Made by a program: the position numbers and the translations under genes. Shown here in pieces: positions 35,517-54,542 of a DNA stretch of 64,000 bases (within the stretch, counting starts at the first letter, position 1; each line of letters opens with the position of its first letter). This DNA comes from Stellaceae bacterium (GTDB lineage Bacteria; Pseudomonadota; Alphaproteobacteria; ATCC43930; CGMCC-115725), in the NCBI GenBank assembly GCA_035648735.1, contig DASRKX010000061.1, positions 528 through 64,527 of the forward strand, in the 5' to 3' direction. The notes under the pieces were generated by a model that saw only the letters and a list, made by a program, of their open reading frames with translations, had not been told where the DNA came from and ran no database searches.

Positions 35517-36156
35517 AATCCCCGTTATAGCCGGCTTTGCGGAAAATCCATTCCCAGGCGGCGACGCTGTGGAAGCTCTGGCAGGTCAGCTGCCAGTAGA
35601 GCAAATTCGCCTTCTCCCGCTCGTTGCGCCAGGATTCGACCATGAGATATCCCGGTCCGCGCCCGACCCGCCGGATCTCGGCCAGCGCCTGAAACAACTC
35701 GCCGATCTCCAGATTGTGCAGCGTGGCGAGCGACAGGACAAAATCGAATTCGCCGTCGGCAAAGGGTAACTGGATCGCGTTGCCGACGGTCAGGAACGGC
35801 CGTGCCTCTTCCTTGGCATGCTCGATGCCGTAGGCGGAAATATCGAGGCCGCGGATTTCGATGCCCGGCACCACCTGGGTGAATTCATAGAGCAGATGCC
35901 CCTTGCCGCAGCCAATATCGAGGATGCGCATGCCGGGCTTCAAGCCATAATGCGCCGCCATGCAGTCTGCGACCTTCCGCCAGCGCCCGTCATAGTGGTA
36001 GCCGCCATAGCCGTAGCGGCGGTCGCCGTCCCAATAGTCGTGGCCCCACTGCCGCGCCACGGCGGCGGATTCCGCCTTGTCATGCGCCACCACGCGCTGA
36101 ACGTAGTCGCGCTTGGTCGCGGCGCTCAAGGATTGGATGAAGTCGAGCTGCGCCAT
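35494..36156 (-). CDS. Class I SAM-dependent methyltransferase
   Basis: Trimmed to ATG 36156. WGHDYWDGDRRYGYGGYHYDGRW, then MRILDIGCGKGHLL and FDFVLSLATLHN. Its last 23 nt overlap the aminotransferase start. Confidence 0.8.
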   Translation of the reverse strand: MAQLDFIQSLSAATKRDYVQRVVAHDKAESAAVARQWGHDYWDGDRRYGYGGYHYDGRWRKVADCMAAHYGLKPGMRILDIGCGKGHLLYEFTQVVPGIEIRGLDISAYGIEHAKEEARPFLTVGNAIQLPFADGEFDFVLSLATLHNLEIGELFQALAEIRRVGRGPGYLMVESWRNEREKANLLYWQLTCQSFHSVAAWEWIFRKAGYNGDYGFIYFE

Positions 36157-36158
36157 GC

Positions 36159-36560
36159 TCACAACGCCGTCGGGCAAGACGGCAGCAATTTGCGCACCAG
36201 CCAGATGTCCTCGACGCGCGTCACATCGGCCTCGGAACGCACCGCGATGCCTTCGAGCGCGCCGTGCAGGCTCGCGCCGGCGTCCAGCACACCCCGCCAC
36301 ACCTCTCGGCGACGCACCGGATCGTCCGGCAACATGCCGAGGCTGTAGCAGATAACGCCCTCGATCGCCGGCAGCTCGTCAAGCACCTGCTCCAGCATCA
36401 TGTAACATTCCGGCATGGCGTATTCGGTCGCCGACAGCAGGAAGCTCAGGCCCTTGCGCCGCGCATAATCCCGCACCACGAGATTCTGGACGTGCTGCGC
36501 GGTGCGCTCGCCGGCAATGGGCCGGCTGGCGATATAGCCGCGATAACCCAGCCGCGTCAT
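36159..36560 (-). CDS. 133-aa protein of unknown function
   Basis: Trimmed to ATG 36560 (ATGA overlap). MTRLGYRGYIASRPIAGERTAQHVQNLVVRDYARRKGLSF... I recognise no motif. Tightly coupled on both sides. Confidence 0.6.
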   Translation of the reverse strand: MTRLGYRGYIASRPIAGERTAQHVQNLVVRDYARRKGLSFLLSATEYAMPECYMMLEQVLDELPAIEGVICYSLGMLPDDPVRRREVWRGVLDAGASLHGALEGIAVRSEADVTRVEDIWLVRKLLPSCPTAL

Positions 36561-37357
36561 TCGGCAAAGCCGCCCGGCAGGCGATAGGCCGACCCCAGCC
36601 GCGTCGCCGGGCGGAGCGAGATCGGCTCGAAGAACTCGCCCAGCCGCTTGTCGGCATAGGGCGTGAAGGCGCCCTTGAAGCGGCAATTCATCGACCAGCG
36701 CGTCTCGCGCTCACGGTTCACGCGGTTGCCGTGCATCAGATTTTGCGAGAAGAGCAGGACATTGCCGTAGGGAATGTCGATGAATTTCAGCTCCGGCTCG
36801 ACCGCCTGATAGAGTTTTTCGGTCGAGCCGAACTCCGCCATGCGATCGTGGTAGCGCGCATGCGCGGCGGGGGGTAGCAGGAACATGCTCTTGGTCTTGC
36901 GGCAGTCGACCAGCGGGATCCACAGCACGACCTCGAAAGGCGAATCGCCGTTGAGCACGTCGGCGTGCAGCGGCAGCAGCGATCCCTCGTCGTCCGGCAG
37001 CTGGATCGAAAGATTGAGCCGCAGCTGCATGACCAATTCGTTGCCGACGATCGTCTCGATCGTCCGGCGCGCGGTGGCAAAATAGGCTGGCCGCGCCCAG
37101 TCCATCCCGTTGAGCCCGTCGAACACGGCGAGCCGCAGGGTGTTCAGCGCGTCGGGCGTGACGCGCTCGTGGATGGTGTCGAGGAAATTCTGCGGATTGT
37201 TCGGCGCCGGCAGGCCGAGATGCCGCGCGGCGAACGCCGCCGCATGGTCGCGGATGCGGTCGAGCGCGGCGCGATCCTCAGCCGGAAGGTTGAGGCAGCC
37301 GTCGGCAAGAAACGCCGCCGCCAGGCCTTGCTCTTCCGCCGTCAGGAAATTGCTCAT
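36557..37357 (-). CDS. Putative Fe(II)/2-oxoglutarate-dependent oxygenase
   Basis: Trimmed to ATG 37357 (ATGA overlap). PLHADVLNGD (HxD) and LFSQNLMHGN (distal His). Assignment by motif spacing only. Confidence 0.7.
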   Translation of the reverse strand: MSNFLTAEEQGLAAAFLADGCLNLPAEDRAALDRIRDHAAAFAARHLGLPAPNNPQNFLDTIHERVTPDALNTLRLAVFDGLNGMDWARPAYFATARRTIETIVGNELVMQLRLNLSIQLPDDEGSLLPLHADVLNGDSPFEVVLWIPLVDCRKTKSMFLLPPAAHARYHDRMAEFGSTEKLYQAVEPELKFIDIPYGNVLLFSQNLMHGNRVNRERETRWSMNCRFKGAFTPYADKRLGEFFEPISLRPATRLGSAYRLPGGFAE

Positions 37358-38286
37358 GGCCGGAGATCCGTGATCGTCTTGGCAATGCGCTCGGCGATCG
37401 GCCCGGGCTGGAGCCCCGCGATCTCCAGCAGATCGTCCTGCGAGCCGTAATGGCGCGGGAAGGCGTCGGGCAGCGCCAGGCGCAAAATTGGCGGTAGCGA
37501 GCCGCCGGCCGCCAGCAAGCAATCGGCGACGGCGCTGCCGAGGCCACCGGTGGCCACATGCTCCTCGACCGTCACCAGCAGTCGCAATCCCTGCGCGAAG
37601 CCGCGCACCGCATCGATATCGAGCGGCTTGACCGTGTGGCAATGGAGCACGCCCGCCTCGATGCCCTGCGCGGCGAGCCGGTCGGCGGCGCGCAGGCAGC
37701 GCTCCGTCAGCACGCCGGTCGAGATCATGCCGATCTGTCCCGGCGCGCGCTTGAGGATTGCCTTGCCGATCGCGAAATTCTCGTCATCCCGCGCGATCAC
37801 CGGATCGCCGCCCTTCCCGAGGCGGATATAGACCGGCCCCGGCCGGTCGAGCGTCGCGGTGACGGCGCGCCGCATTTCCTGAGCGTCCGAGGGCGCGATC
37901 ACGGTCATATTCGGCAGCGCGCGCAGAATCGCCATGTCCTCGATCGCGAGATGGGTCGGCCCGAGCGGCGCATAGACCACGCCGCCGCCATTGGCGATGA
38001 GACGGACCGGCAGGTTGTGCAGGCAAAGATCGACCGCCACCTGCTCGAAGCAGCGCCGCGTCAGGAAGGTGGCGATGGTGTTGACGAAGGGGATGAACCC
38101 CTCCATCGCCAGGCCTGCCGCCATGCCGACAATGTTCTGCTCCGCCACGCCTTCCATGAAAAAGCGGTCGGGCATCTCGGCCCGGAATTTGTCCATGGTG
38201 CCGACGCCGAGATCGGAGCCGATGAATACGACGCGCGGATCGCGCCGCGCCAGTTCCGTAACGGTATCGAGCGCGGTCTGGCGCAT
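37354..38286 (-). CDS. Transketolase-family protein, C-terminal (pyrimidine-binding) subunit
   Basis: Trimmed to ATG 38286. VVFIGSDLG, FFMEGVAEQNIVGMAAGLAMEGFIPFVNTIATF. Confidence 0.85.
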   Translation of the reverse strand: MRQTALDTVTELARRDPRVVFIGSDLGVGTMDKFRAEMPDRFFMEGVAEQNIVGMAAGLAMEGFIPFVNTIATFLTRRCFEQVAVDLCLHNLPVRLIANGGGVVYAPLGPTHLAIEDMAILRALPNMTVIAPSDAQEMRRAVTATLDRPGPVYIRLGKGGDPVIARDDENFAIGKAILKRAPGQIGMISTGVLTERCLRAADRLAAQGIEAGVLHCHTVKPLDIDAVRGFAQGLRLLVTVEEHVATGGLGSAVADCLLAAGGSLPPILRLALPDAFPRHYGSQDDLLEIAGLQPGPIAERIAKTITDLRP

Positions 38287-39122
38287 CAGCCGTTCTCCAG
38301 CGCGGCATACATGGCGGCGACCTGCTCCGGCTTGATCTTCGATTTGTGGTGCCAGGCCGCGTCGTTCTCGGCGAAAGGCAGGCCCTTGCCCTTGACCGTG
38401 TGGCAGATCACCGCGAGCGGCTTGGCGGCGCCGCGACGCGGTGCGAAGGCGGCGCGCAACGCCGCTACGTCGTGGCCGTCGACCTCGACGACATCGAAGC
38501 CGAAGGCGCGCCATTTGGCGCCGAGCGGCTCTAGCGGCTGAACCTCGGAAACCGAGCCATAGGACTGCATCTTGTTGTAATCGACGATGGCGGTGAGGCT
38601 GGACAGGCCGTGCTTGCCGGCGCACATCGCCGCTTCCCAAACGCTGCCCTCATCGATCTCGCCGTCGCCCATGGCGACGAAGACGCGGGCATCGGTCTTG
38701 CGGATGCGCGCGGCGAGCGCCACGCCGATGCCGATCGACAAGCCATGGCCCAAGGCGCCGGTGGATGCCTCGACGCCGGGAATCTTGCCGGCTTCGGGAT
38801 GGCCGCCGAGGAAACTGTCGCGCGTGCAGAAATCCGCGAGCTCCGCCGCCGGGAAATAGCCCTTATCGGCCAGGATGGCGTAGAGCGCCAGGCAGCCATG
38901 GCCCTTCGACAGGATGAACCGGTCGCGGCCCTGCCATTTCGGCTCCGCCGGCCGGTGACGCAGCACGTCGTCGTACAGCACGCGCAGGATTTCGATCAGC
39001 GACATCGAGGAACCGATGTGCCCGCGCCCACCGCCGTCAAGCGCCCGGACCACCAAGCGGCGCAGATCGCGCGAGCGGTTGTCGAGCCGAATGGCGTTCG
39101 GCAGGTTTACGGCTTTAGTCAC
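38286..39122 (-). CDS. Transketolase-family protein, N-terminal (ThDP pyrophosphate-binding) subunit
   Basis: GTG 39122 (GTGA overlap). GGRGHIGSSMSLIEIL, ILSKGHGCLALYA, VAMGDGEIDEGSVWEA (GDG...ThDP-Mg motif). TGATG junction with the C-terminal subunit. Confidence 0.85.
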   Translation of the reverse strand: MTKAVNLPNAIRLDNRSRDLRRLVVRALDGGGRGHIGSSMSLIEILRVLYDDVLRHRPAEPKWQGRDRFILSKGHGCLALYAILADKGYFPAAELADFCTRDSFLGGHPEAGKIPGVEASTGALGHGLSIGIGVALAARIRKTDARVFVAMGDGEIDEGSVWEAAMCAGKHGLSSLTAIVDYNKMQSYGSVSEVQPLEPLGAKWRAFGFDVVEVDGHDVAALRAAFAPRRGAAKPLAVICHTVKGKGLPFAENDAAWHHKSKIKPEQVAAMYAALENG

Positions 39123-40705
39123 GGCAGATCCTCGATTGCGGATGCGGTCCGCGCCAGCATGGCCTCGGCCTTGGCGAGCTGGCGCGTCTGGGCGGCGGCG
39201 CGATCGCCGTCGCCGTCGCCGGCGACGGCGCGGCGTGCCCAACGCTCCGGCAGGAATTCATTGAGCAGGATGAGGCACCAGCGCAACGCGTAAAGCGGTA
39301 GCTGCCTCTCAAGCCTTGCACGAAAGTTAGCGTCACCGGCATGAAGTTCGACCATGCCGCGAGCAAAGCGGCGGCGAGCGTCCGGATCGAGAGCCATGCC
39401 GGGATGCAGCAGGAAATCCGCGGTGAGCTTCACCGGATCGTCCCAGCCGAAATATTCGAAATCGACGAACACGATGCGGCCCTCAGCGGTGCGAAGCGCG
39501 TTATGGAAGCCGAAATCTGATGGGCTGAGCGTCCGCTGCGCGATCGGCAATTCCGCGGCCGGACTGTTGCCCGCCGTCAGCGCCGCACGCCGGCCGCACA
39601 GGCGCGCCAGGAAGTCGCGCAGCTGCGTCTCGCCCGCTGCAATTTCCGACAATCTTGTCTCGCGTGCGGCGGTCTGGCGCAGAATTTCCGCCGTCGAGAG
39701 ACAGGTCTCGGAGGCGAGCGGCAGCCCCGCAGCACCCGGCGCAGATCGGTAACCATGCAGCCGGCGCAGGAAATCCAACGCCGCGTCGATGTCGCCGTTA
39801 TTTGGGCTGGCGATGGGCGTGCCATCGATCCATTGATAGAGTGCCGCGCTCATCTCTCGACTCATCGCGATGGGCGCCGGCACGGCATCCTCGCCTTGCG
39901 CCTTGAGGAAGGACAGGGCGCCGTATTCCGTGCCCAGCCGATCGCGCGGATCGTCATCGGGGGACGGATAAGATTTCAGCGCCATGGCGCCATCCGCGCC
40001 GGCCACACGGTAGAGGCGATTATTGCCGCCCTGCAAAACGCGCACGACATCATTCACGGGCGCGCCGTTCAGCATGGCCGCAGCGGCGATCGCCGGATCG
40101 ATGCCCAAAAGATGGTCGGCGATCTCACGATGAGTGCGGAAGGCGCGAAAGCGTCCGCGCGGCAATTCGTCGTAGCCGGCAGCGTAAAGATAGGCACGAA
40201 TGTGGGCGGGAAAGTCCGGCTCGCCAAACACCTCGTCGAGGTCGTCGATGAAATGCGTGCAGCCGATGGACAGAATCCGGCGAATCTTGTCCTGACGCGT
40301 CGGCTCGAAGAACACGTTCTCGCGCGCCACGCCCATGCCGCGCTCGAACAAGCCGTTGGATTCCATCCAGATCATCGCCGCATTTCTAAGATCGGTCTCG
40401 GGATCGAAAGGGCTGAATTGCGTCTTGTGGCTAACGACCGCCACCGGAATGTTCCGCAGGCGGGCGCGTTCGAGCAGGGTCGCGATGCCGTCGGTGAGCC
40501 GCGCCCGGCCGATATCTCGGCCATAGGCGCGGGCCTGCAATTGCTGCCAGGCGATGTCGCCGCCCGGCCCGGCGCGCACCGCGTCGCGCACCGCCTTCTT
40601 GCCGCCGTAGAATGCCGCCGGCACCAATCCCATGTCGCGCGCCAAAGCCAAAAAGCCCTCGTCGTAACAGGCGATCGTATTGTCGAAATCGATTCCGATC
40701 AGCAC
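39119..40705 (-). CDS. Fusion protein: N-terminal HAD-superfamily phosphatase-like domain plus C-terminal APH/choline-kinase-fold phosphotransferase domain
   Basis: HAD motifs IGIDFDNT (DxDxT), VVSHKT, FIDDLDE. Kinase-fold motifs MALKSYP, SPSDFGFHNAL (DxxxxN), VFVDFEYFGWDDP. GTG start. Confidence 0.75.
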   Translation of the reverse strand: MLIGIDFDNTIACYDEGFLALARDMGLVPAAFYGGKKAVRDAVRAGPGGDIAWQQLQARAYGRDIGRARLTDGIATLLERARLRNIPVAVVSHKTQFSPFDPETDLRNAAMIWMESNGLFERGMGVARENVFFEPTRQDKIRRILSIGCTHFIDDLDEVFGEPDFPAHIRAYLYAAGYDELPRGRFRAFRTHREIADHLLGIDPAIAAAAMLNGAPVNDVVRVLQGGNNRLYRVAGADGAMALKSYPSPDDDPRDRLGTEYGALSFLKAQGEDAVPAPIAMSREMSAALYQWIDGTPIASPNNGDIDAALDFLRRLHGYRSAPGAAGLPLASETCLSTAEILRQTAARETRLSEIAAGETQLRDFLARLCGRRAALTAGNSPAAELPIAQRTLSPSDFGFHNALRTAEGRIVFVDFEYFGWDDPVKLTADFLLHPGMALDPDARRRFARGMVELHAGDANFRARLERQLPLYALRWCLILLNEFLPERWARRAVAGDGDGDRAAAQTRQLAKAEAMLARTASAIEDLP

Positions 40706-40716
40706 CCGGACCGAAC

Positions 40717-41724
40717 CTATTTAAGCTTCAGTTCCTGCATCCGCTTGATATTGAAATAGAGCGGATTGTTGAGCGGGTCCTGCAGCTTCCCCGTTTTCAG
40801 CGCGTCGACCAGACCGCCGACGGCATCGGCGATGGTGTATTTGAGCTCGAAGCCGATGTCCTTCCGGATGCGCTTGCCGGAGACGTGATAGGAGCGCGGA
40901 TCGTTGGTCGGCACCGTCTCGATCGCGACATGGTCGCCGACCGCCTTGCGCACCATCGCCGCGAGATCGACGATCGGATGATTCTCGTCGCCGGCGTTCC
41001 AGATCTTGCCGTCGATCGCTTCGTCGGGCTGCGCCAGCAGATGCAGATAGACCCGCGCCATGTCCTCGATATGAATGTTGGGGCGCTTCTGCGTACCGCC
41101 GAAGACCTTGATCTTGCCGGCATGGAAGGCCTGGTTGGTGAAGATGTTCACCACGACGTCCATGCGCTGGCGCGGCGCATAGCCGCACACCGTCGAGGGA
41201 CGGATGGAGCACACCACGAAACCCGGCGCGCGCTCTTCCAGCAATTCCATCTCGCACAACGCCTTGAACTTGGAATAATCGGTCAGCGGCGCAAGCGGCA
41301 AATCCTCATGCACTTCGGGTTCGTCCTTGACGCCATAGACCGACGAGGACGACGCGAAGATGAAACGCTTGACCCCTGCCGCCTTGGAGGCGCGGACCAA
41401 CGGGCGAAACGCCGCGTGGTTGATCGACTTACCGAGCCCCGGATCGAGATCGTAGGACGGGTCGTTCGAGATGCAGGCAAGGTGAAGGACGCAATCGCAG
41501 CCCTTGAGAGCGTCGGCGACAGTCCTCGGATCGCGGATGTCGCCCTTGATCTCGCGCAGGCGCGGATTGCCGCGCACGGCGGCGAGCGCATCGTCGCCAT
41601 ACATATAGAGGTCGAGCACGGTCACCGCGTGCCCCGCCTCGAGCAGCCGGGGAACCAGCACGCTGCCGACATAGCCGGCGCCGCCGGTCACCAGAACGTT
41701 CCATTTTTTCTCGGCGATTGTCAT
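40717..41724 (-). CDS. NAD-dependent epimerase/dehydratase (extended SDR)
   Basis: VLVTGGAGYVGSVL, FASSSSVYG, YSKFK (YxxxK). Confidence 0.85.
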   Translation of the reverse strand: MTIAEKKWNVLVTGGAGYVGSVLVPRLLEAGHAVTVLDLYMYGDDALAAVRGNPRLREIKGDIRDPRTVADALKGCDCVLHLACISNDPSYDLDPGLGKSINHAAFRPLVRASKAAGVKRFIFASSSSVYGVKDEPEVHEDLPLAPLTDYSKFKALCEMELLEERAPGFVVCSIRPSTVCGYAPRQRMDVVVNIFTNQAFHAGKIKVFGGTQKRPNIHIEDMARVYLHLLAQPDEAIDGKIWNAGDENHPIVDLAAMVRKAVGDHVAIETVPTNDPRSYHVSGKRIRKDIGFELKYTIADAVGGLVDALKTGKLQDPLNNPLYFNIKRMQELKLK

Positions 41725-41740
41725 GCCCGATCGGACTCCG

Positions 41741-43303
41741 TCATTTCAGCAGGGTATTGACGAATTTCATCAGCGGAATCTTTTCCACCGACTGCCGGTG
41801 GCCGACGATGCCGACCTTGATGGCGCCGGCGGCGTTGCCGACGAAGCCGACATCGGCCATATGTCCGCCGACGGCGACGAGCGGCGCGGTGACGGCGAAG
41901 AACGCGTCGCCGGCGCCGACCGTGTCGACCACCGTCTTAGTGAAGGCCGGAATGCGGGTGACGCCTTCGCCGGGTGAGTAGGTGTAGCAGCCGGACGATC
42001 CCTGCGTCACGATGGCCTTGCGGCATCCGGTGATGCGCGGCAACACCTCGCCCACCACTTCCGCGATATCGCTGTACTTGTCGCTGGTGGCAAGCCGCGC
42101 CTCAGGCGCATCGATGCAGACGTAGTCCGCGTTCCGATATTTGCTGATCAAATTATAGCCCTGGTTGCCGGCGTTGGTTTGCGCATTGACGGCAAGGAAC
42201 TTCGCATTCTTCCTCAACACATCAACTAGGCCGTGCCCGATCATGCCGTGCCCGAAATCGTTGACGATGACGAGATCAGCCGCTTTGACTTTATCCCGCA
42301 CGAGTTCGGTCAATCCCGCTTCCTCACTTGAAGGCAGCGGCCGGTCATCCATGAAATAGACCTCGAACAGCTTGCGCATATACGAGCCGGGATCGACATA
42401 GCGCAGCTTCCTGGTAGTCGGACGGTCGGTGACCTGGACGACCCCGAGGCGAACATTGGGTTTTATATTCCGGCGGATCATTTCCTCGTAGGGACAATCC
42501 TTCGCCAGCGTGGTGATTACTTCGACCTCGGCACAGAACGCAGCGACATGGTTTGCGGTAGCGACCACGCCGCCGGCGAAGATTTCGGTTCCCTGATACA
42601 AGCTGGCAATGATGTGTTCCTTGGAGGGCTTACCGAGATTTCCGACGTATTGATATTCGTCGATGATCGTGTCGCCCACGATCAGAACCTTCAAACGGCT
42701 CACTTTTTCAATCAACACACGGATGCGTTGGGGACCGCCACCGGCCCGCAAGCCGTCGAGGAAATCGCGCAACGGCGGGTCGTAGACGTCGAGATAGCGA
42801 TTGATCAAGTTCGACGATGAAAAGGTGATATCGCGCGTGAACACCAACCGCCCGCCATGTCGTTCCACCGCCTCGCGTTCGTCGGTGATCTTGCCGGTGA
42901 TGTCTTCCTCAGGATTCTCGTAATCGGATCCCTTGACGTAGACATCGGGCCGGATGGTATCGAGGACCGTTTCGGCGTCGGACGCGTCGTTGATGCCGAC
43001 GTAATCGACGTATTCGAGGGCTGCCAGCATCTCGGCGCGCATCTCCTGGCCGAAGATCGGCCGTCCCGGCCCCTTGTTGACGAAACGGTCGGCGGTAAGC
43101 GTGACGACGAGTACGTCGCCTTCGGCCCGTGCCGCTTCCAGGTGGCGGACGTGACCCATATGCACCAGGTCAAAGACGCCGTGGCAGAGAACGATCTTTT
43201 GCTTGCGCTTGCGGGCTTCATCCGCCAGGCGGCCCAATTCTGCAATGGCATGGATTTTCCGGCGCGCGGGGCGGACCGATGCCGGAACCGTCGAACGCGT
43301 CAC
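41741..43303 (-). CDS. Bifunctional cytidylyltransferase-like (N-terminal) / PfkB sugar kinase (C-terminal) protein; HldE/RfaE-like domains in inverted order
   Basis: N-terminal IVLCHGVFDLVHMGHVRHLEAA (HxGH), EYVDYVG. C-terminal VLIVGDTIIDEY and DTVGAGDAFFAV (PfkB signature). GTG start abuts the upstream TAA. Confidence 0.8.
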   Translation of the reverse strand: MTRSTVPASVRPARRKIHAIAELGRLADEARKRKQKIVLCHGVFDLVHMGHVRHLEAARAEGDVLVVTLTADRFVNKGPGRPIFGQEMRAEMLAALEYVDYVGINDASDAETVLDTIRPDVYVKGSDYENPEEDITGKITDEREAVERHGGRLVFTRDITFSSSNLINRYLDVYDPPLRDFLDGLRAGGGPQRIRVLIEKVSRLKVLIVGDTIIDEYQYVGNLGKPSKEHIIASLYQGTEIFAGGVVATANHVAAFCAEVEVITTLAKDCPYEEMIRRNIKPNVRLGVVQVTDRPTTRKLRYVDPGSYMRKLFEVYFMDDRPLPSSEEAGLTELVRDKVKAADLVIVNDFGHGMIGHGLVDVLRKNAKFLAVNAQTNAGNQGYNLISKYRNADYVCIDAPEARLATSDKYSDIAEVVGEVLPRITGCRKAIVTQGSSGCYTYSPGEGVTRIPAFTKTVVDTVGAGDAFFAVTAPLVAVGGHMADVGFVGNAAGAIKVGIVGHRQSVEKIPLMKFVNTLLK

Positions 43304-44308
43304 TTAATTTTTCCCTCGGCCGAGATACTTGAACCAATCCGCCGTCGCCGCCGCGATGCTTTCCGGCGTCCAGATCGGCGCGTCGCGCCAAAGATCGATG
43401 TTCTCGAGCAGCCGGCCGATGCCCTCTTCCAAGCTCACGCGCGGACGCCACCCCAGACGCTGCTTGATGCGGGAAATATCGGCCCAAGTGCAGTCGGGCT
43501 CGCCGGGGCGCTTCGGAATATAGACCGACTGGCCGCCCAGCAGCTCGACGATGCGGTTGACGCTGTAGGTGCCGTCGGAGCCGACATTCATTATCTCGCC
43601 GGTAAGCGCGCTGGCGGCGGCGGCGACAAAAGCGCCGGTCACGTCAGTCACATAGGTGAAGTCACGCGTCTGGGTTCCATCGCCAACGATGGTGTAGGGC
43701 TTGCCGGCGAGCTTCTGCGCCAGGAACACGCCGAACATGGCGCCATAGCTGCCCGAGGTGCGGTGGCGCGGCCCATAGACATTGAAGAGACGAAGGGACA
43801 ACGCTGGCAGGCCATAAAGCTGCGCCCAATGCAAGACGAGCTCCTCGCCCAGCCGCTTGGTGAGCGCATAGGGATATTGCGGTTGGATCGCGGCGGTTTC
43901 CGGCGTCGGATAGACGTCTGGAATGCCGTAACAGGACGACGAGGCGGCATAAAGAAATCGCTCGACGCGATGGGCGCGCGCCGCTTCCAGCACGGCCATA
44001 GTGCCGTCGACATTGGCGCGAAAATAATCCAGCGGCTGGCGAATGGACGGCACGATGTCGGCAAGCGCCGCGAAATGGAACACCCATTTGACGCCTTCCA
44101 TCGTGCCGTCGAGCGCGCCGGCATCCGCGATATCGGCCACATGAACGGTCAACCGCGGATTGCTGCGATGCTGCACCAGATTGTCCGGCCGACCGGTGAC
44201 CATGTTGTCGACCACCACGACCGCGTGCCCATCGGCGATCAAGCGATCAACCATGTGGCTGCCGATGAAGCCGGCGCCGCCGATGACGAGAGATTTATGC
44301 TGGGACAA
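43304..44308 (-). CDS. NAD-dependent epimerase/dehydratase (extended SDR)
   Basis: No ATG near the Rossmann start. I chose TTG 44308 (AGGA 4 nt upstream), giving MSQHKSLVIGGAGFIGSHMV. ASSSCYG, YALTK. Confidence 0.8.
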   Translation of the reverse strand: MSQHKSLVIGGAGFIGSHMVDRLIADGHAVVVVDNMVTGRPDNLVQHRSNPRLTVHVADIADAGALDGTMEGVKWVFHFAALADIVPSIRQPLDYFRANVDGTMAVLEAARAHRVERFLYAASSSCYGIPDVYPTPETAAIQPQYPYALTKRLGEELVLHWAQLYGLPALSLRLFNVYGPRHRTSGSYGAMFGVFLAQKLAGKPYTIVGDGTQTRDFTYVTDVTGAFVAAAASALTGEIMNVGSDGTYSVNRIVELLGGQSVYIPKRPGEPDCTWADISRIKQRLGWRPRVSLEEGIGRLLENIDLWRDAPIWTPESIAAATADWFKYLGRGKN

Positions 44309-44324
44309 GGAATCCTGTGTCTGG

Positions 44325-45260
44325 TTAAAGGCGAATGCCGTGCTTGGCGAGCAGCGATTCGTTATCGGCACGGTAATAGTCCTTGATCCGGCGGGCCGCC
44401 TCCGGCGAGGGCGTGACGTCAAACTTTTTTCCGCCCACGAGCCAATTGCGGAAAACCGCCTTGAGCGGCGGCGGCAGCAACGGCCCGAGGCCGCGGCCGC
44501 CGGTCAGCCGCGCGCGCAACCGGTTAGCGGTATAGAGCCGCTCCATCTGGTGCTCGTTCTCGCGGACATTCGTCGTTCGCGCCAGGCACGGATCGCGCTC
44601 ATCGATGCCAATGAATCGACAGAGGCGCTGCAAGACGGTAATGGGATCGGCCCGGAAATCCTCGAAGGCATAAACCAGGATGTTCCCCTCGCCCACCAGC
44701 GCCGCGTAGCGATCGATCATGGCCGCATAGCGGAAGCTGTCCAAGAACGCGCCGCAGACATAGCGGAAATGAATGTCGAGATAGTGGTCGAAATCGGGAT
44801 ACCAGTTCTGCCTGGTGCCGGGAATGCCCGTCATCTCGCCGCGATGCTCGGTGAGGTAATTGCTCTTGATCAACGATAGCTGATCGCGCACGCAGAAGAT
44901 CACCCGAAACGGCGCCAAGGGCGCGAAGATATCCATGACGCGCCGCAGCTTGGCCATGCCATCCACGCCGGTGAATACGCTCAGGCCTTCATCCGAAAGA
45001 ACCACGGGCCGCCCGCCGGATTCCCGGGCGACCGATTCGACCAAAATACGCGTTACTTGAGGATCGGGCGCGAAATCGAGACCGCCGGCCTCGATCTGCT
45101 TCATCAGCGCGCCAATTGGCGGAGTCCGCCAGCCCTCGTAGGCGCGCGCGCGATCAACGTTCTTGCCCAGGAAAAACAGCCCGGGATGCGCCGGGAAGAA
45201 CGCGTTTTGCAGCGTCGAGGTCGCGGTCTTTGGCGAGCCGATATGGACGATCAGGGTCAC
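44325..45260 (-). CDS. Putative sulfotransferase-family protein
   Basis: GTG 45260 (GTGA overlap). VHIGSPKTATSTLQNAFF resembles the PAPS 5-prime-phosphosulfate-binding loop (PKxGTT). Tentative. Confidence 0.5.
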   Translation of the reverse strand: MTLIVHIGSPKTATSTLQNAFFPAHPGLFFLGKNVDRARAYEGWRTPPIGALMKQIEAGGLDFAPDPQVTRILVESVARESGGRPVVLSDEGLSVFTGVDGMAKLRRVMDIFAPLAPFRVIFCVRDQLSLIKSNYLTEHRGEMTGIPGTRQNWYPDFDHYLDIHFRYVCGAFLDSFRYAAMIDRYAALVGEGNILVYAFEDFRADPITVLQRLCRFIGIDERDPCLARTTNVRENEHQMERLYTANRLRARLTGGRGLGPLLPPPLKAVFRNWLVGGKKFDVTPSPEAARRIKDYYRADNESLLAKHGIRL

Positions 45261-49003: not shown

Positions 49004-49933
49004 CTAGGCGCGCGCAAAGATTATGTTCGATGCCGGAACATCGGCTTCACGCGAACGTTCGGGCTTCGAGTCCCAAACGCTATAATCCGATACGACGTCG
49101 AAGCCGTGGCTCTTCAGGATATCGATGATCGCCAGATCCCTTAGCGACTTCTTGTTTATCTCGACCAGAAACGACTTCAGCGTTTCCAACTTCAATGTCC
49201 GACGACAGCCGTCGATGATTTCCGGCTCGTTGCCGTCAACATCGATCTTGATGTGGGTGGGCGATGGAAAGCCATGGTTGAGGATGAGATCATCGATGCT
49301 GGTTCCATAATTGACTTGGCGAAACCCGCTTTCGGCAGTTCCCCCCGCGGCCTTGAAGCTTTCTGGCAATTCTCTGCCGGCCGCGTCGGCGGTGTGAAAC
49401 AGGTTGTAGGCGCCGCCAAGGGTCAGATAGCGAACTTGCAACTCGCCATACCCCGGCTTGTTCGTGACCGCTGTGCAAGAAGCGCGAAGACAACCGGTGC
49501 CGAGCTCGTTGATGACCATGTTCCTCATGAGCAAGGCGTAGTTTTGCGCTTCCGGCTCGAAGGCGACGGTCCGACATTTGCGGAATTTGGCGGCATAGAT
49601 GGAATAGAGGCCGACATTCGCACCTATGTCCCAAAACACGTCCGATTCCTTGAAGCTGTCGAGCCATGGAATCGTCGTCGGTTCCTCGGTGTGGAACGTG
49701 AGAGCGCGCCACCGCAGCCGTCCGTGACCGGCATAGCATTTCAGCTTTCCGTAGCGCGTCGGAATCTCGATTATCGGATCGACCGCCTGCGCGATTTCGG
49801 TGGACAGGAAGCCCGCCTTGTTCAATCCCAGAAGCGAAATAATACCGTTTGCCAGCTTGCGCGCCGCCAACTGCTTGTAGGAGCGCGCAACATCGGCGCC
49901 CAGTGCTAACGGGTCGACTGTTTTTTTACTCAT
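49004..49933 (-). CDS. FkbM-family methyltransferase
   Basis: Trimmed to ATG 49933 (ATGA overlap). VFWDIGANVGLYSIYAA, VAFEPEAQNYALLMRNMVINEL, HIKIDVDGNEPEIIDG. Confidence 0.8.
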   Translation of the reverse strand: MSKKTVDPLALGADVARSYKQLAARKLANGIISLLGLNKAGFLSTEIAQAVDPIIEIPTRYGKLKCYAGHGRLRWRALTFHTEEPTTIPWLDSFKESDVFWDIGANVGLYSIYAAKFRKCRTVAFEPEAQNYALLMRNMVINELGTGCLRASCTAVTNKPGYGELQVRYLTLGGAYNLFHTADAAGRELPESFKAAGGTAESGFRQVNYGTSIDDLILNHGFPSPTHIKIDVDGNEPEIIDGCRRTLKLETLKSFLVEINKKSLRDLAIIDILKSHGFDVVSDYSVWDSKPERSREADVPASNIIFARA

Positions 49934-51090
49934 TTTGTCTCGCCATGCTTGTAGCAACTCGCGCAGATATCCGGAATTCGGCCGGCGAGATGATCCGCGC
50001 GGAATTTTCGATAGGTTTCGCCGTGCCAGACATCGCCGAATGATTTAGCGCCCTCGACGTTGCCCAATTCATACACGTCCGGATTCGAAATCATGCAGCA
50101 CGGAACCACCCGCATGTCGGATGACAAAAAACTGCGCTCGAACGGCCAGTTGCAAAGCGTTTCCGGCGACTTGACCGAAAAACGATCGAAAGTCTTCCAG
50201 AACCCCAGGGCGATGTCCAAATCACCGGCGCGGCGGAGCAGCCGATCAAGGCGATCGAGAAAGGCCTCGTCGACCGTGACGCGATCGCCGGAAAGCTGTT
50301 TCTCCCACTTCTCCAGTCCCGCGGCTTCCAAATCCATCCCGAAGCCGACGCTGGTGAAATCAAGCCGCGCGGCCAGTTCCAGCAAATCCTCGAGCTGATG
50401 GACGTTCAGCCGCTGGACCGTGGACCACATCTTGGTTCGCTTGATACCGAGGTCTTTGCAATAGCGATTGATCCTGGCGCAGTTGTCCAAAACGCGCTCG
50501 AAATCGGAACCCTTCCGAATGGCGCAGAAAATCTCCTCCGTGCTGCCATCGATCGAAATCTGAATTTCGTTCGTGCCGGCATCCACCAGCTTCTTATAAT
50601 TGTCGTGCAGGTGAAGCAGGGAGGCATTCGTAGTGGTACGAACCCAAATATGCTGGGAGCGCGCGTAGCGGATCATCTCGAAGACCGTATCGCCTTGCAG
50701 GAGTGGCTCGCCCAATCCCTGGAGCTTGATTTCGATGAGACCGACCTGTTCGTCGATGACCCGCTTGAAATCCTCAAGCGACATATCGCCGGCGCGCTGT
50801 CCTTTCGTCCACTCGCTTACCGAGCACATGGTACAGCGAAAGTTGCAGCGGCTCACATTCTCGATGTCGAGCTTAATCGGCAGGTAATCGAGATCGGTGC
50901 GGCGCGCCCCGGCAAGATAGCGCGCGTAATTCTCGCGACATCCCGAACGCGTTGATAGTGCCAATTCCAGTTCGCGGTCGTACGCCTCCATGCCCGCAGA
51001 AGGCTTCGGCTTCGGCAACGCCTGGAACCTGGCTATGAGAAGCGCAAGCGCCGCATCATCTGTCCCCGAAGTCTGATCGAGAGCGGTCAT
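49930..51090 (-). CDS. Radical SAM enzyme with Cys-rich SPASM/twitch-like C-terminal domain
   Basis: IENVSRCNFRCTMCSVSEW (CxxxCxxC). C-terminal LCNWPFERSFLSSDMRVVPCCM...DICASCYKHG. ATGA overlaps on both sides. Confidence 0.85.
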   Translation of the reverse strand: MTALDQTSGTDDAALALLIARFQALPKPKPSAGMEAYDRELELALSTRSGCRENYARYLAGARRTDLDYLPIKLDIENVSRCNFRCTMCSVSEWTKGQRAGDMSLEDFKRVIDEQVGLIEIKLQGLGEPLLQGDTVFEMIRYARSQHIWVRTTTNASLLHLHDNYKKLVDAGTNEIQISIDGSTEEIFCAIRKGSDFERVLDNCARINRYCKDLGIKRTKMWSTVQRLNVHQLEDLLELAARLDFTSVGFGMDLEAAGLEKWEKQLSGDRVTVDEAFLDRLDRLLRRAGDLDIALGFWKTFDRFSVKSPETLCNWPFERSFLSSDMRVVPCCMISNPDVYELGNVEGAKSFGDVWHGETYRKFRADHLAGRIPDICASCYKHGETK

Positions 51091-52208
51091 CTCAGCGCCT
51101 TTGCCATCTGGATGGCGTCATCGAGGACATCGTCAATGTCGAGAACATAGTCGTATTTGCCCATGCGGCCGATCGAGAATACGCCGTCCGGAATCATCGC
51201 GAGGTATTTCTTCGCTTTTTCGACTTCCGACGAAATCGGTACGGGATAGAGACGGTTGCGCATGGAAGGGATCTCAATCCCGATCAACGTGGTGGGCGAT
51301 TTGTGCAGCGTCAGTTTCTTGTACTCGACGACGCGGGTAACCGGCTGCGCGTTAGCGTAGTAGCAAAAGAAGACGTTCTTCGGAAAAACCTCTTCGATTG
51401 GCAGGACGATCGGATAGAAATCTCGGCCTATGAACCGCAGTTCGCCATGAACGTTGTTGAACAGAACATCGAGCGAAGCCGTGCTGACGATAATGTCGAA
51501 GGTAATCTTTTCGCCGTTCAGCACCACGGTCTTATTCGGTATATCGTATTTCTCGATGCGGGTTTTGAGCAACACCTTGGTGTCCGGTCCCGCCGTAGCA
51601 ATTTTAAAGAAATCGTCGTAGCCGTTAGCAGCATGCGGATAGCACGAAATCCAATCGTGAAAGACCTCGCGCGGCCCACTGGCGATATTCGGTCCCTTGG
51701 GCGACCAATTCTGGACGTTGTGGTCGATCGCCGACGGATCACTGACCTTCCACATCTTATTGTTGTAGTCGTGGATGAATTTCGCATAGAGCGTCGGACC
51801 CACCGAGTTGATCCAATAGTCTTTAAGATTGGCCGCGCCGCTCGGGCCCGGCGCCGCGTCCATTTCGGCGAGCACCTTCGCCGCGTCGGGCATCGAGCGG
51901 ATATCGTCGATGTGGATGGGATAATGGTAGAAGCGCTGATCCTGCTCGACGTAAGTCCAGAACAGATGCTCGTTGCAGCGCCGCAGCGGCACATAGGTGT
52001 TCAGGTACTCGTAGACATGGATCATGTTGGTCAGGAAATGGCGCGGGCCGAAGGTATAGGGGTGGCCGCCCTGATAGAAGGTCTTGCAGCCACCTCCAAG
52101 GAAGGCCGCGGTCTCCACCAGAGTGGTCTGCCAGCCGCCCAGCAGCTCGAGTTGATGGGCGGCGGCGCAGCCGCCGAAACCACCGCCAATGACCAACGCT
52201 TTTTTCAT
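51087..52208 (-). CDS. glf: UDP-galactopyranose mutase-like FAD-dependent protein
   Basis: MKKALVIGGGFGGCAAAHQL...FLGGGC. Blocks that parallel E. coli Glf from memory: YNNKMWK vs YTEKQWG, TRVVEYKKL vs TRIIEHKHF, GRMGKYDYVLDIDDVLDDAI vs GRLAEYKYYDMHQVISAAL. Confidence 0.7.
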   Translation of the reverse strand: MKKALVIGGGFGGCAAAHQLELLGGWQTTLVETAAFLGGGCKTFYQGGHPYTFGPRHFLTNMIHVYEYLNTYVPLRRCNEHLFWTYVEQDQRFYHYPIHIDDIRSMPDAAKVLAEMDAAPGPSGAANLKDYWINSVGPTLYAKFIHDYNNKMWKVSDPSAIDHNVQNWSPKGPNIASGPREVFHDWISCYPHAANGYDDFFKIATAGPDTKVLLKTRIEKYDIPNKTVVLNGEKITFDIIVSTASLDVLFNNVHGELRFIGRDFYPIVLPIEEVFPKNVFFCYYANAQPVTRVVEYKKLTLHKSPTTLIGIEIPSMRNRLYPVPISSEVEKAKKYLAMIPDGVFSIGRMGKYDYVLDIDDVLDDAIQMAKALR

Positions 52209-52259: not shown

Positions 52260-53909
52260 TCAAATCTCGAGCAAGATGGTCGCATAGCGGCGCATCGAAG
52301 CGCGGTGGGAAACCGCTATGATGAGCAGGTCCGGAAAAGTTGCCCTCAACTGCTCCATGATCTGTCGTTCGGTGTCTTCGTCGATATTGGCCGTGGCTTC
52401 GTCCAGCAACAGAACATCGGGTCGGCGCAAGATGCAGCGGGCCAAGGCCAGCCTCTGCTTCTGCCCGGCCGAGATGCCTTCACCGGCCTCTTGCAGCCGG
52501 TGAGAAAGGCCGCCATCCAGGTCGAAGACGAATTCGGCGCGAGCGAGGTGCAGGGCCTTTTTGATTTCCGCATCCGAGACGTGGTTCGACTCAAACCCGA
52601 AGAGCAAATTGGTGCGGATGTCCGCATCGATTAGATAAGGCTCAGGCCCCGCATAGCCGAGACGACGACGCAGCCGCATCGGGTCGATCTTTTCAATCGA
52701 CATGCCGCCCCAGCTGATCGCACCTCCAAGCGGCTTCAGGAGGGCGATGAGCGTCAACAAGAGCGTGGTCTTACCCTTCCCCGATGGACCATGGATGAGG
52801 AGCGTATCGCCGCTGCCGGCCGAAAGGTCGAGCGGCGCGGCCAGGGCGACATCCCGGCCGAAACGAAGATTCTCGGCGACCAAGGGAAAAAGTCTCGGCG
52901 GCATGTCGTCGCCGGGAAGAATGGCGCGATCGCCGGGAAAAAGTTGCGGCAGATGCGTGACCAGTTCGGCGATATAGGGCCGGCTCTCGCCGAGCTGTCC
53001 CGCCGACGCGCCGAGGCTGCTGATGCTGGCCGAGGTGCGGTACAGCAGATAAACCAGCGGCACCAAACCGGCGACCGGAAGGAATTCCAGCCGGGCATTC
53101 AGCCAAAATATGCCCACGATCAGGAACGTTCCCGCGAGGTTCGGCAGATTGGTGCCGAAGGCATGCAAGACGAAATAGCGTTTGAAGGTGCGGATATGGT
53201 TCCGCGAAATCCCGATCAGCCGGTCGGCTTCGATCTCATTGGCGCCGCTAAGCCTCAGCAGATGGCTGTTCCGAATATCCTTGAGAAACGTCACGTTAAA
53301 CTGACGAAAAAGACCATACATGCGTTCGATATGCTTGCCGGCGACACGGCGCAGCAGCAGCAGCGACAGCCCGAGCACCACCGTAATCGCGAGCGCGATC
53401 ACCGTCAGTTGCCAGGAAATGTGGAACAACCCCGCCAGGATCAGGAGCATGAGGCAGAGCCCCACCGCGATCGTGGCCATGGAGTGCACGAAGTCGCCGC
53501 TCTTCGGAATCAAATGGGAAAGCAAATGCGAGGAACCGGCGACCGACATCACCGAGCGCTCGGTGAAGCCGCCTAAAACGTTTCGCACTAACGCCTCGCG
53601 CAGGCGTGCATTGAGTTGTTGGTTTGCAAAGGCCGGCAACATTTGACCCGTGAAGCGGAGAAACGCGGCAAGACAGGTGAAGATCAGGAGTGCCGTCACG
53701 GGAGAGAGCCCTAGGGTCAGATTTGAGGAAATCGGCGAGCCGGACACCAGATGGAAATCCACCAGGACAGCGTACAACACGGTGGCCGTGACGATCTCGA
53801 CCACGCCCAACGACACGCCCACGGGGATAGCGGCGATGAACAGCGTCGCGACTTTCGGCCCGATCAGCCGATAGAGCGCCGTCAATCGTTTAAAATTATT
53901 TTTAAGCAT
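52260..53909 (-). CDS. Fused TMD-NBD ABC exporter (MsbA/PglK-like architecture)
   Basis: 549 aa. N-terminal multi-TM region, then HGPSGKGKTTLL (Walker A), ISAGQKQRLALARC (signature), LLLDEATANID (Walker B). Confidence 0.9.
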   Translation of the reverse strand: MLKNNFKRLTALYRLIGPKVATLFIAAIPVGVSLGVVEIVTATVLYAVLVDFHLVSGSPISSNLTLGLSPVTALLIFTCLAAFLRFTGQMLPAFANQQLNARLREALVRNVLGGFTERSVMSVAGSSHLLSHLIPKSGDFVHSMATIAVGLCLMLLILAGLFHISWQLTVIALAITVVLGLSLLLLRRVAGKHIERMYGLFRQFNVTFLKDIRNSHLLRLSGANEIEADRLIGISRNHIRTFKRYFVLHAFGTNLPNLAGTFLIVGIFWLNARLEFLPVAGLVPLVYLLYRTSASISSLGASAGQLGESRPYIAELVTHLPQLFPGDRAILPGDDMPPRLFPLVAENLRFGRDVALAAPLDLSAGSGDTLLIHGPSGKGKTTLLLTLIALLKPLGGAISWGGMSIEKIDPMRLRRRLGYAGPEPYLIDADIRTNLLFGFESNHVSDAEIKKALHLARAEFVFDLDGGLSHRLQEAGEGISAGQKQRLALARCILRRPDVLLLDEATANIDEDTERQIMEQLRATFPDLLIIAVSHRASMRRYATILLEI

Positions 53910-53921
53910 CTGGTCGTCGGT

Positions 53922-54542
53922 TCAGAACCGAACCCGTCCCAAATGTCCGTCCTCAATGACGGCGTGACGGATGAACTGAGCCAGGACGTGCATCAGGCTT
54001 TGGTGGACATCCTCGGACACGCCGTAATTATCGGCCGCGACGTGGATGCCGATATCCGCGAGCGTCATCGCGGTACCGCCGTCGAAGCCGGTCAGGGCGA
54101 TGGTTGCAACCCTGTTGTCGCGCGCCCAGCGGAGCGCGCGGCAGACATTCTCCGAGTTGCCGGACGAACTGATCGCGATGAGCGCGTCGCCCGACCGCGC
54201 CGCCCGTGAAAGCTGAAACGCGAAGATTTCGGCGTATTCGATGTCATTGGCGATGGCGGTGATGATCTCGACGCCAGTGCTCAGCGACTGGACGCGCGGG
54301 CGCAGGTTGGTATGGGTGGACATGCCCTTGGCGAAATCGCAATGCAGGTGGTTGGAAATCGCCGCCGACCCGCCATTGCCGCAAGCGAAGATCTGACCGT
54401 CCTTTTCGACGGTCTCAATCAACAGACGCGCCGCACTATCGAGTGCTGCGCGGTCCACCGAGGCGAGCGCCCTTCCCACTTCCGCCGCATAGGCATCGAG
54501 ATAGGCGCCGACGCCGGAGAATTTCTGATCAGGGAAGATCAT
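53922..54542 (-). CDS. gmhA: SIS-domain sugar-phosphate isomerase, GmhA (sedoheptulose-7-phosphate isomerase)-like
   Basis: IFACGNGGSAAISNHLHCDFAKG, LIAISSSGNSENV, TIALTGFDGG. Confidence 0.8.
   Translation of the reverse strand: MIFPDQKFSGVGAYLDAYAAEVGRALASVDRAALDSAARLLIETVEKDGQIFACGNGGSAAISNHLHCDFAKGMSTHTNLRPRVQSLSTGVEIITAIANDIEYAEIFAFQLSRAARSGDALIAISSSGNSENVCRALRWARDNRVATIALTGFDGGTAMTLADIGIHVAADNYGVSEDVHQSLMHVLAQFIRHAVIEDGHLGRVRF

Follow-up and report, generated by a model that had tools for sequence, protein, structure and literature searches.

The radical SAM gene and its coupling

The 64-kb stretch of DNA analysed here (64,000 nucleotides of contig DASRKX010000061.1 from the Stellaceae bacterium assembly GCA_035648735.1, in the following called the window) carries a gene for a radical S-adenosylmethionine (SAM) enzyme, termed rSAM below, between a gene for a flavoenzyme resembling UDP-galactopyranose mutase (UGM, also Glf) upstream and a gene for an FkbM-family methyltransferase downstream, all three on the minus strand. 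The rSAM open reading frame (ORF; positions 49930-51090) runs intact from ATG to TGA, encodes 386 amino acids (aa) and is, among all ORFs of 150 aa or more that the window holds, the sole one with a CxxxCxxC motif. An earlier note on this DNA, made from the letters and their translations, had described coupling by ATGA overlaps on both sides, and this is what is found: on the plus strand, 'tcat' occurs at 51087-51090, where the stop codon of the GLF-like gene (51087-52208) overlaps the rSAM start codon, and again at 49930-49933, where the rSAM TGA overlaps the ATG of the FkbM gene (49004-49933). Independent gene calls on a public metagenome contig of 79 kb that encodes an identical protein (ENA ERZ27294416, k141_554339) set the same boundaries. 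Moreover, between 36.5 and 63.3 kb neighbouring genes on the minus strand either overlap or are separated by gaps of at most 57 bp, so that no intergenic slot is left for a precursor-peptide gene, in line with the earlier remark that no such ORF lies nearby.

Radical SAM core and N-terminal extension

The rSAM protein belongs to the radical SAM superfamily. It matches the Pfam model Radical_SAM (PF04055) with 69.7 bits against a cut-off of 29.5, and its AlphaFold2 (AF2) model (predicted local distance difference test score, pLDDT, 80.8; predicted template modelling score, pTM, 0.84) consists of alternating beta and alpha elements and retrieves exclusively radical SAM enzymes in Foldseek searches. 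The motif CNFRCTMC at residues 82-89, already recognised as a canonical CxxxCxxC in the earlier note, supplies the three cysteines (C82, C86 and C89) of the SAM-cleaving [4Fe-4S] cluster and is invariant in an alignment of 77 homologues, to which the conservation values below also refer. Further downstream follows the sequence QGLGEP (residues 124-129), in which G125, G127, E128 and P129 are each at least 97% conserved and which we take to be the glycine-rich SAM-binding 'GGE' motif after beta-2. Eight basic residues, R81, R99, K122, R144, R151, R319, R364 and H367, are likewise invariant, a set that would fit an anionic, nucleotide-linked substrate.

The core is preceded by an extension of 70 residues with the conserved motif LPxPEPSAG...Y.RE..LAL. 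The AF2 model folds it into three helices (residues 11-22, 33-46 and 50-60), and the mean pLDDT of ten-residue blocks lies at about 80-94 over residues 11-70. Since the model shows no beta-strand before residue 72, a winged helix like that of the RiPP recognition element (RRE) is absent, and a Pfam search of the rSAM protein returned no match to a PqqD/RRE domain.

A twitch domain with five conserved cysteines

The cysteine-rich C-terminus noted earlier is present as described (LC313NW, PC331C332M and C376ASC379), and the Pfam SPASM model matches with 41.5 bits against a cut-off of 21.5. The SPASM model also matches twitch proteins, which carry a smaller version of this domain, and the designation SPASM-like used in the earlier note has to be narrowed. 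Besides the three cysteines of the core motif, C313, C331, C376 and C379 are conserved to 100% and C332 to 99% (76 of 77 sequences), followed at a distance by C204 with 90%. The alignment does not contain the seven-cysteine SPASM motif (CX9-15GX4C ... CX2CX5CX3C ... C), and its CX2CX5CX3C element in particular was not found. A full SPASM domain with two auxiliary clusters was rejected on these grounds, as conservation in the C-terminal part is limited to C313, C331, C332, C376 and C379; with only five family-invariant cysteines in this region the domain corresponds to a one-cluster twitch.

Which twitch it resembles is indicated by a profile built on the last 94 residues and run against the PDB. 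The only protein family that it matched was BtrN (E 0.009), the 2-deoxy-scyllo-inosamine (DOIA) dehydrogenase of butirosin biosynthesis. Cysteines C169, C187, C232 and C235 of BtrN (residue numbers of Goldman et al., 2013), which we take to be the ligands of its auxiliary cluster, align at equal spacing with C313, C331, C376 and C379. The auxiliary cluster of BtrN is ligated by four cysteines. In rSAM, one auxiliary [4Fe-4S] cluster would be held by C313, C331, C376 and C379, and the C-terminal domain is, as judged by its cysteine pattern, a twitch of the BtrN type. C332 directly follows the ligand position C331 and constitutes one extra cysteine beyond the putative cluster ligands. Of the three comparators named in the earlier note (peptide maturases, anaerobic sulfatase-maturating enzymes, anSME, and BtrN), BtrN is thus the apt one, being the sole PDB match of the C-terminal profile. 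Nevertheless, the phmmer match to BtrN is limited to residues 313-380 (E 5e-3), and beyond the twitch domain the likeness is that of the superfamily.

Foldseek neighbours of the AF2 model comprise the twitch protein SkfB, DesII (query-normalised TM-score 0.60 over about 374 columns, the highest among the matches listed), BlsE, SuiB, PqqE, viperin and MoaA, four of which (DesII, BlsE, viperin and MoaA) have a sugar, a sugar nucleotide or a nucleotide as substrate. As the TM-scores amount to just 0.5-0.6 and are spread over many radical SAM subfamilies, transfer of a specific function from structure is ruled out.

A widespread family outside the characterised ones

A protein search with rSAM returned 899 homologues at E <=1e-3 (best about 1e-159), all of about 380 aa, the top one 65% identical and most others 53-60%. 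Their annotations are all unspecific, 'PqqE' or 'MoaA/NifB/PqqE/SkfB family' for example. With the member from Bradyrhizobium manausense as query, 1,304 clusters at 90% identity were found at E <=1e-50. Alphaproteobacterial hosts include Bradyrhizobium, Azospirillum, Magnetospirillum, Paramagnetospirillum, Skermanella and Thalassobaculum; other members occur in Acidobacteria, Verrucomicrobia, Myxococcota, Bdellovibrionota, Planctomycetota and the cyanobacterium Microcoleus, and loci with sugar genes are found in at least eight phyla. Carriers that can be cultured include Azospirillum cavernae K2W22B-5, A. rugosum, Paramagnetospirillum caucaseum SO-1, Skermanella aerolata, B. manausense and Nibricoccus sp.

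Scored against hidden Markov models (HMMs), a comparison suggested in the earlier note, rSAM stays below the cut-off of every NCBIfam model. The best of these, TIGR04317, scores 102 bits against a cut-off of 380, and NF033640 (N_Twi_rSAM, 'twitch domain-containing radical SAM protein') 93.6 bits against 170. Because no NCBIfam cut-off is reached, the match to BtrN is confined to the twitch and TM-scores are just 0.5-0.6, the family is, on these comparisons, a new twitch-type family outside every characterised one. Clustering with a peptide-modifying subfamily, the outcome that the note had named as speaking against a sugar substrate, was not seen, as no NCBIfam maturase model comes near its cut-off and neither PqqD nor RRE is present.

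Sugar genes around the homologues

Genomic contexts were compared at 80 loci from species-representative genomes that carry an rSAM homologue at 45-57% identity; depending on the question, counts cover 77-81 loci. Neighbours were counted by tblastn with the window proteins and by de novo clustering of ORFs of at least 100 aa without an overlap filter, and both agree. Nucleotide-sugar genes lie within 10 kb of the rSAM homologue at 62 of 77 loci, and the same distance applies to the following neighbours. A GLF-like orthologue is present at 45-48 loci, adjacent on the same strand at 23 and upstream at 17 of these 23. Orthologues of the class I methyltransferase of about 230 aa (window 35494-36300) occur at 41-43 loci, both halves of a split transketolase at 34, extended short-chain dehydrogenases/reductases (SDRs) at 33-38 and an HldE-like enzyme with reversed domain order at 28, and genes of the SIS family recur as well. 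A short RmlD-like SDR is found at 22 loci (adjacent to rSAM at 16), and an FkbM-like methyltransferase at 24 (adjacent on the same strand at 12). The complete triad of GLF-like, rSAM and FkbM genes is also found in Paramagnetospirillum, in three Microcoleus genomes and in two metagenome-assembled genomes (MAGs), one of Planctomycetota and one unclassified; these recurrences outside the window span three phyla. Next to the closest homologue (65%) the gene order is glyoxalase, GLF, methyltransferase, rSAM, methyltransferase, an unannotated gene, transaldolase, FkbM, NeuB and UDP-GlcNAc 2-epimerase. The earlier suggestion of a sugar or sugar-nucleotide substrate is therefore strongly backed by the 62 of 77 loci, by the 23 adjacent GLF genes and by the recurring triad.

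At roughly one in three related loci the homologue is accompanied by other radical SAM genes, up to three of them around the GLF-rSAM pair. They include a second twitch-like rSAM/SPASM family (C297-x17-C315 ... C360xxC363) at 7 loci, a 354-aa radical SAM protein at 11 loci and B12-binding radical SAM proteins that are probably C-methyltransferases.

The glycan locus in the window

The window (63% GC) is as a whole a glycan super-locus, encoded nearly entirely on the minus strand and without a single housekeeping gene over its 64 kb. Table 1 lists the features discussed.

Table 1. Features of the rSAM gene, its neighbours in the window and additional radical SAM genes at related loci (positions at loci L081, L076 and L033 are locus-specific)
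Feature	Position	Strand	Basis
Radical SAM/twitch-domain enzyme gene (rSAM)	49930..51090	minus	ORF and translation, Pfam, homologues, AF2 model
N-terminal three-helix extension, aa 1-70	50881..51090	minus	conserved alignment columns and AF2 model
CNFRCTMC motif of the SAM-cleaving [4Fe-4S] cluster	50824..50847	minus	100% conserved in 77 homologues
Twitch domain, aa 313-379	49954..50154	minus	Cys invariance and C-terminal profile match to BtrN
GLF-like divergent UDP-galactopyranose-mutase-family flavoenzyme, coupled upstream	51087..52208	minus	PF03275 GLF 93 bits, NAD_binding_8
FkbM-family methyltransferase, 309 aa from ATG at 49933, coupled downstream	49004..49933	minus	PF05050, TIGR01444
Fused transmembrane domain-nucleotide-binding domain (TMD-NBD) ABC exporter, MsbA/PglK-like	52260..53909	minus	ABC_tran and ABC_membrane; MsbA/PglK-type NCBIfam models below cut-offs
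GmhA-like SIS sugar-phosphate isomerase, heptose-pathway entry	53922..54542	minus	SIS_2 80 bits; gmhA-type models 110-114 bits, below cut-offs
Extended SDR, nucleoside-diphosphate (NDP)-sugar 4,6-dehydratase/epimerase-like	43304..44422	minus	Pfam and NCBIfam; ~56% identical orthologues at 36 loci
HldE-like bifunctional enzyme, reversed order (nucleotidyltransferase N-terminal, PfkB kinase C-terminal)	41741..43303	minus	Pfam; rfaE domain I/II models below cut-offs
Extended SDR epimerase/reductase	40717..41724	minus	Pfam and NCBIfam; ~50% identical orthologues at 38 loci
Split transketolase, N- and C-terminal subunits	37354..39242	minus	Pfam and NCBIfam
TIGR04324 'sporadic carbohydrate cluster 2OG-Fe(II) oxygenase'	36557-37642	minus	286 bits against cut-off 150; adjoins split transketolase
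Class I SAM methyltransferase	35494..36300	minus	Pfam; orthologues co-occur with the rSAM family
Other radical SAM genes at related loci	L081 7699-8862, 12015-13589; L076 1942-3876, 4486-5493, 7854-9476; L033 2611-3675		

The GLF-like protein shares with UGM the GLF Pfam domain, the N-terminal FAD-binding Rossmann motif and an alignment over the full length (to the Deinococcus radiodurans UGM, 3hdq, with a phmmer E of 1.9e-22 and 82.8 bits), and it keeps the motifs TRV...YPVP...GR..Y.Y. However, the match to solved UGMs is weak for an enzyme of the same family, and the UGM equivalog model TIGR00031 reaches 85 bits, below its cut-off of 304. This comparison suggests a pyranose/furanose mutase that probably serves some sugar different from UDP-galactose, possibly an NDP-heptose. 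The two halves of the HldE-like enzyme both score well below the rfaE cut-offs, and the sugar that it activates may for this reason not be the canonical ADP-heptose. Further tailoring genes encode a NUDIX protein, an NDP-sugar dehydrogenase, SDR epimerases/dehydratases, a GFO/IDH/MocA oxidoreductase, a DegT aminotransferase, a sulfotransferase-like protein, two 2-oxoglutarate (2OG)-oxygenase-like proteins (one being the TIGR04324 protein) and about ten methyltransferases, including two C-methyltransferases of the TylC3 type and three of the FkbM type. A nonulosonic-acid branch (NeuB, UDP-GlcNAc 2-epimerase and CMP-transferase) is present, as are glycosyltransferases for assembly, an MBOAT acyltransferase and a heparinase II/III-like protein. 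The ABC exporter encoded upstream of the GLF-like gene likely exports a glycan or a lipid-linked glycan, as its domain matches suggest.

A proposed reaction and its alternatives

What does a twitch radical SAM enzyme do in such a locus? As the family adjoins a ring-contracting mutase and a methyltransferase in sugar clusters of many phyla, rSAM probably performs its radical chemistry on a sugar building block of a cell-surface glycan and not on a peptide. Beyond this, it seems quite possible, with chances a little short of even, that the enzyme abstracts a hydrogen atom from an NDP-activated sugar, probably derived from a heptose or 6-deoxyheptose, and then epimerises or oxidises the carbon attacked. 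A substrate of this kind is suggested because genes for the SIS isomerase, the kinase-nucleotidyltransferase, the 4,6-dehydratase-like SDR and the NUDIX protein co-occur and because the Arg, Lys and His residues mentioned above are invariant. The proposal starts from the fold class, the cluster-ligand pattern, the missing features of peptide maturases and the conserved sugar-pathway neighbourhood, which are supported directly, and adds, by inference, which sugar it is, at which carbon it is attacked and whether it is epimerised or oxidised.

In this reading rSAM, the GLF-like mutase and the FkbM O-methyltransferase would form one segment of a pathway and act on the same sugar. The enzyme would hold one SAM-cleaving [4Fe-4S] cluster on C82, C86 and C89 and one fully cysteine-ligated auxiliary [4Fe-4S] cluster on C313, C331, C376 and C379. 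Reductive cleavage of SAM would yield the 5'-deoxyadenosyl radical, and this would abstract a hydrogen atom from one of the sugar's unactivated carbinol carbons. The resulting substrate radical might then be quenched from the opposite face by the thiol of C332, leading to net epimerisation as in HygY and NeoN. Alternatively, the auxiliary cluster might, like that of BtrN, oxidise the substrate radical and so give a keto-sugar for further processing by a partner SDR or methyltransferase.

Several observations weigh against epimerisation or oxidation of a nucleotide sugar by such an enzyme. The similarity to BtrN is weak and does not reach beyond the twitch domain, and no solved structure is more than 22% identical, with Foldseek TM-scores in the modest range given above. 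No family member characterised biochemically or genetically was found in the literature on such enzymes, and the role of C332 as hydrogen donor would be an analogy with HygY and NeoN. Furthermore, 15 of the 77 loci have no sugar genes nearby, and the clusters often carry other radical SAM enzymes, B12-dependent ones included, so that unusual C-C bond or C-methyl chemistry is common there. A different chemistry on the same kind of substrate would be radical C-C bond formation or skeletal rearrangement of a nucleotide sugar to give a carbocycle, a branched chain or a contracted ring, with the auxiliary cluster balancing redox as in MoaA. This would lead to a higher-carbon or branched sugar of a sort that Alphaproteobacteria are known to make, examples being caryose, caryophyllose, bradyrhizose and the 4-C-branched sugar of Rhodopseudomonas palustris, and carbocyclic and C-branched sugars are indeed documented in O-antigens of Bradyrhizobium and Rhodopseudomonas. 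Chain-extending enzymes are frequent neighbours (the split transketolase at the 34 loci mentioned, a transaldolase at about 13), although they may merely supply sedoheptulose-7-phosphate. Loci of Bradyrhizobium, Azospirillum and their relatives hold a pair of NDP-sugar-dehydrogenase-like and GFO/IDH/MocA enzymes, which presumably resembles the lincosamide octose pathway, whereas the window has divergent enzymes of these two families and no close homologues of the Bradyrhizobium-type proteins, nor of the transaldolase found with them. The abundance of other radical SAM enzymes in related clusters speaks for this chemistry, as does the presence among the structural neighbours of the twitch enzyme MoaA, by which a C-C bond is formed on a nucleotide. 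On the other hand, the auxiliary cluster of MoaA has an open iron site that binds the substrate, while that of rSAM appears fully cysteine-ligated like the cluster of BtrN, and the clusters found with the B. manausense protein contain no family member from photosynthetic, bradyrhizose-making Bradyrhizobium. On balance we consider such C-C chemistry unlikely, and its more specific form, a C-C bond-forming or ring-rearranging step on an NDP-activated hepto- or higher-carbon (furanose) sugar that would represent the missing enzyme type behind carbocyclic or C-branched higher sugars in the O-antigens of Alphaproteobacteria and other bacteria, decidedly unlikely.

Epimerisation or oxidation by a BtrN-like twitch enzyme also has to be set against removal of a substituent, in which rSAM would be a radical dehydratase, deoxygenase or deaminase comparable to AprD4 or DesII and the keto-deoxy sugar would be reduced by an adjacent SDR. 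The appearance of DesII among the top Foldseek matches is consistent with this, and so is the short RmlD-like SDR that adjoins rSAM at 16 loci, mostly where no GLF gene is its neighbour, an arrangement that we take to mirror the pairing of the dehydratase AprD4 with the reductase AprD3. Since the window lacks an orthologue of this SDR, DesII presumably has no auxiliary cluster and the clusters already hold conventional SDRs of the 4,6-dehydratase type for deoxygenation, we give a radical elimination only a small chance. A function that is not tied to glycan building blocks at all, for instance on a small metabolite or a cofactor with the sugar clusters as a site of recruitment, could be argued from the 15 orphan copies, a clade of which in Thalassobaculaceae lies by an ECF sigma/anti-sigma pair and others of which lie beside unrelated housekeeping genes. 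Their neighbours include glyoxalase, SDR, glutamate dehydrogenase, MFS transporter, phosphodiesterase and ECF sigma genes, and no alternative functional lead was found in these neighbourhoods. In a star-like tree, however, the orphans are polyphyletic and lie scattered within the glycan-linked members, they keep the same invariant residues, and several sit on short contigs; together with the recurrence of tight coupling to GLF-like and methyltransferase genes across phyla this makes a function outside glycan synthesis very unlikely. Finally, a SPASM-type peptide or protein maturase with a precursor encoded elsewhere would account for the Pfam SPASM match and for partial NCBIfam matches to putative maturases such as TIGR04317. 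Yet all these models stay far below their cut-offs, rSAM has five of the seven SPASM cysteines and no CX2CX5CX3C motif, its N-terminus is all-helical without a PqqD/RRE domain, the operon has no intergenic room for a peptide gene, and among the ORFs of at least 100 aa compared at related loci (smaller ones being left out) no conserved peptide-related neighbour family appeared. With no RRE, no precursor gene nearby and no maturase model near its cut-off, the peptide-maturase reading was rejected as extremely improbable.

Relation to known radical SAM enzymes

Like BtrN (PDB 4M7T, 4M7S), rSAM combines a radical SAM core with a C-terminal twitch, and BtrN likewise acts on a carbohydrate-like substrate and has an auxiliary cluster that is fully cysteine-ligated. 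BtrN, however, has about 250 aa compared to 386 in rSAM, which adds the conserved helical extension of 70 aa and a longer linker between barrel and twitch and has C332 where BtrN has Phe188. BtrN is moreover encoded in an aminoglycoside cluster, while rSAM lies among nucleotide-sugar and surface-glycan genes. Orthology to the DOIA dehydrogenase was rejected, given the match restricted to the twitch, the different length and N-terminus and a context without an aminocyclitol pathway.

NeoN and HygY are twitch radical SAM sugar epimerases of neomycin and hygromycin B biosynthesis, respectively, in which the configuration at an unactivated sugar carbon is inverted with an essential cysteine (Cys249 in NeoN) as hydrogen-atom donor; for HygY, exchange of the cysteine is reported to switch the product from epimer to ketone. 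The family described here has one near-invariant cysteine, C332, beyond its putative cluster ligands, a resemblance that may serve as a lead; the substrates of HygY and NeoN are free pseudo-oligosaccharides and not NDP-sugars. Size, N-terminal extension and the surface-glycan setting beside a UGM-like mutase set rSAM apart from BtrN and apparently from HygY and NeoN. By analogy, there is a nearly even prospect that rSAM works as a twitch enzyme of the BtrN, HygY and NeoN kind without belonging to these families.

DesII (PDB 8HZV), a TDP-4-amino-4,6-dideoxy-D-glucose deaminase/dehydrogenase, is comparable as a radical SAM enzyme that acts directly on a nucleotide sugar, but it is 16% identical and belongs to a macrolide deoxysugar pathway; presumably it also lacks the cysteine set of an auxiliary cluster. 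The SPASM maturases anSME, PqqE, SuiB and CteB share the Pfam SPASM match and appear among the Foldseek/PDB matches, but they differ from the window family, which has the cysteines of one cluster, no RRE or precursor gene, and sugar enzymes as neighbours.

To our knowledge, almost every known case of radical SAM chemistry on sugars belongs to an antibiotic pathway (BtrN, DesII, NeoN, HygY and AprD4). The present family is large and strongly conserved, with identities of about 50-57% across Alphaproteobacteria and the other phyla named above, and it is embedded in cell-surface glycan clusters, where its gene repeatedly shares an operon with that for a divergent UGM-like mutase. Its reaction, once worked out, would define a new nucleotide-sugar modification and probably a new sugar in lipopolysaccharides (LPS) or capsules, and the function would reach more than 1,000 proteins now annotated as 'PqqE/MoaA-like radical SAM'. 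The family would also test whether an extra cysteine beside an auxiliary-cluster ligand predicts an epimerase over a dehydrogenase in twitch enzymes. Should C-C bond chemistry turn out to be its task, rSAM would be the first enzyme of the radical SAM superfamily to be given a role in the synthesis of primary LPS or capsule building blocks.

Further observations in the window and at related loci

The split transketolase in the window could provide sedoheptulose-7-phosphate or add a two-carbon unit to a sugar. Close to it lies an ORF of 528 aa (39119-40705, minus strand) that has no Pfam or NCBIfam match and appears to be fused from two conserved proteins of no known function, encoded by separate genes at related loci. 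One of them, of about 205 aa, is 39% identical to the translation of nucleotides 40184-40699 and is found at about 11 related loci; the other, of about 342 aa, is 47% identical to that of nucleotides 39155-40030 and is found at about 15. Both parts may be components of the same sugar pathway.

At the two loci most like the window (L005 and L086) a glyoxalase/VOC-fold protein of 136-144 aa is encoded directly upstream of the GLF-like gene (L005 8248-8658, L086 740-1174), a position at which the window has no counterpart. In Thalassobaculaceae and relatives (L004, L006, L010, L054, L059 and L066) an orphan rSAM gene is divergent from a pair of ECF sigma and zf-HC2 anti-sigma genes, and no sugar genes lie within 10 kb of it at these six loci; in Thalassobaculum fulvum the orphan rSAM gene is followed by one for an HD-domain protein.

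In Bradyrhizobium manausense (L025 11200-21052) and at L020, L027, L030, L032, L035 and L042 the rSAM gene is convergent with an 11-gene operon for a transaldolase, two SDRs, an HldE-like enzyme, a GFO/IDH/MocA protein, an NDP-sugar dehydrogenase, two methyltransferases, a split transketolase and a short SDR. An 11-gene 'gdh' operon is required for bradyrhizose in photosynthetic Bradyrhizobium strains. A link between the two was considered and found unsupported, as the clusters from the search with the B. manausense protein hold only B. manausense and metagenome members and include no sequence from strains ORS278, BTAi1 or ORS285. The loci of the L025 type have no glycosyltransferase or GLF gene within 10 kb of rSAM and are flanked by genes for a TonB receptor, a PepSY_TM protein and a rhodanese. 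Their enzyme set presumably resembles the lincosamide octose pathway (LmbR/N/P/O/M/L/Z), and the product of the operon might be a higher-carbon sugar or else a small molecule.

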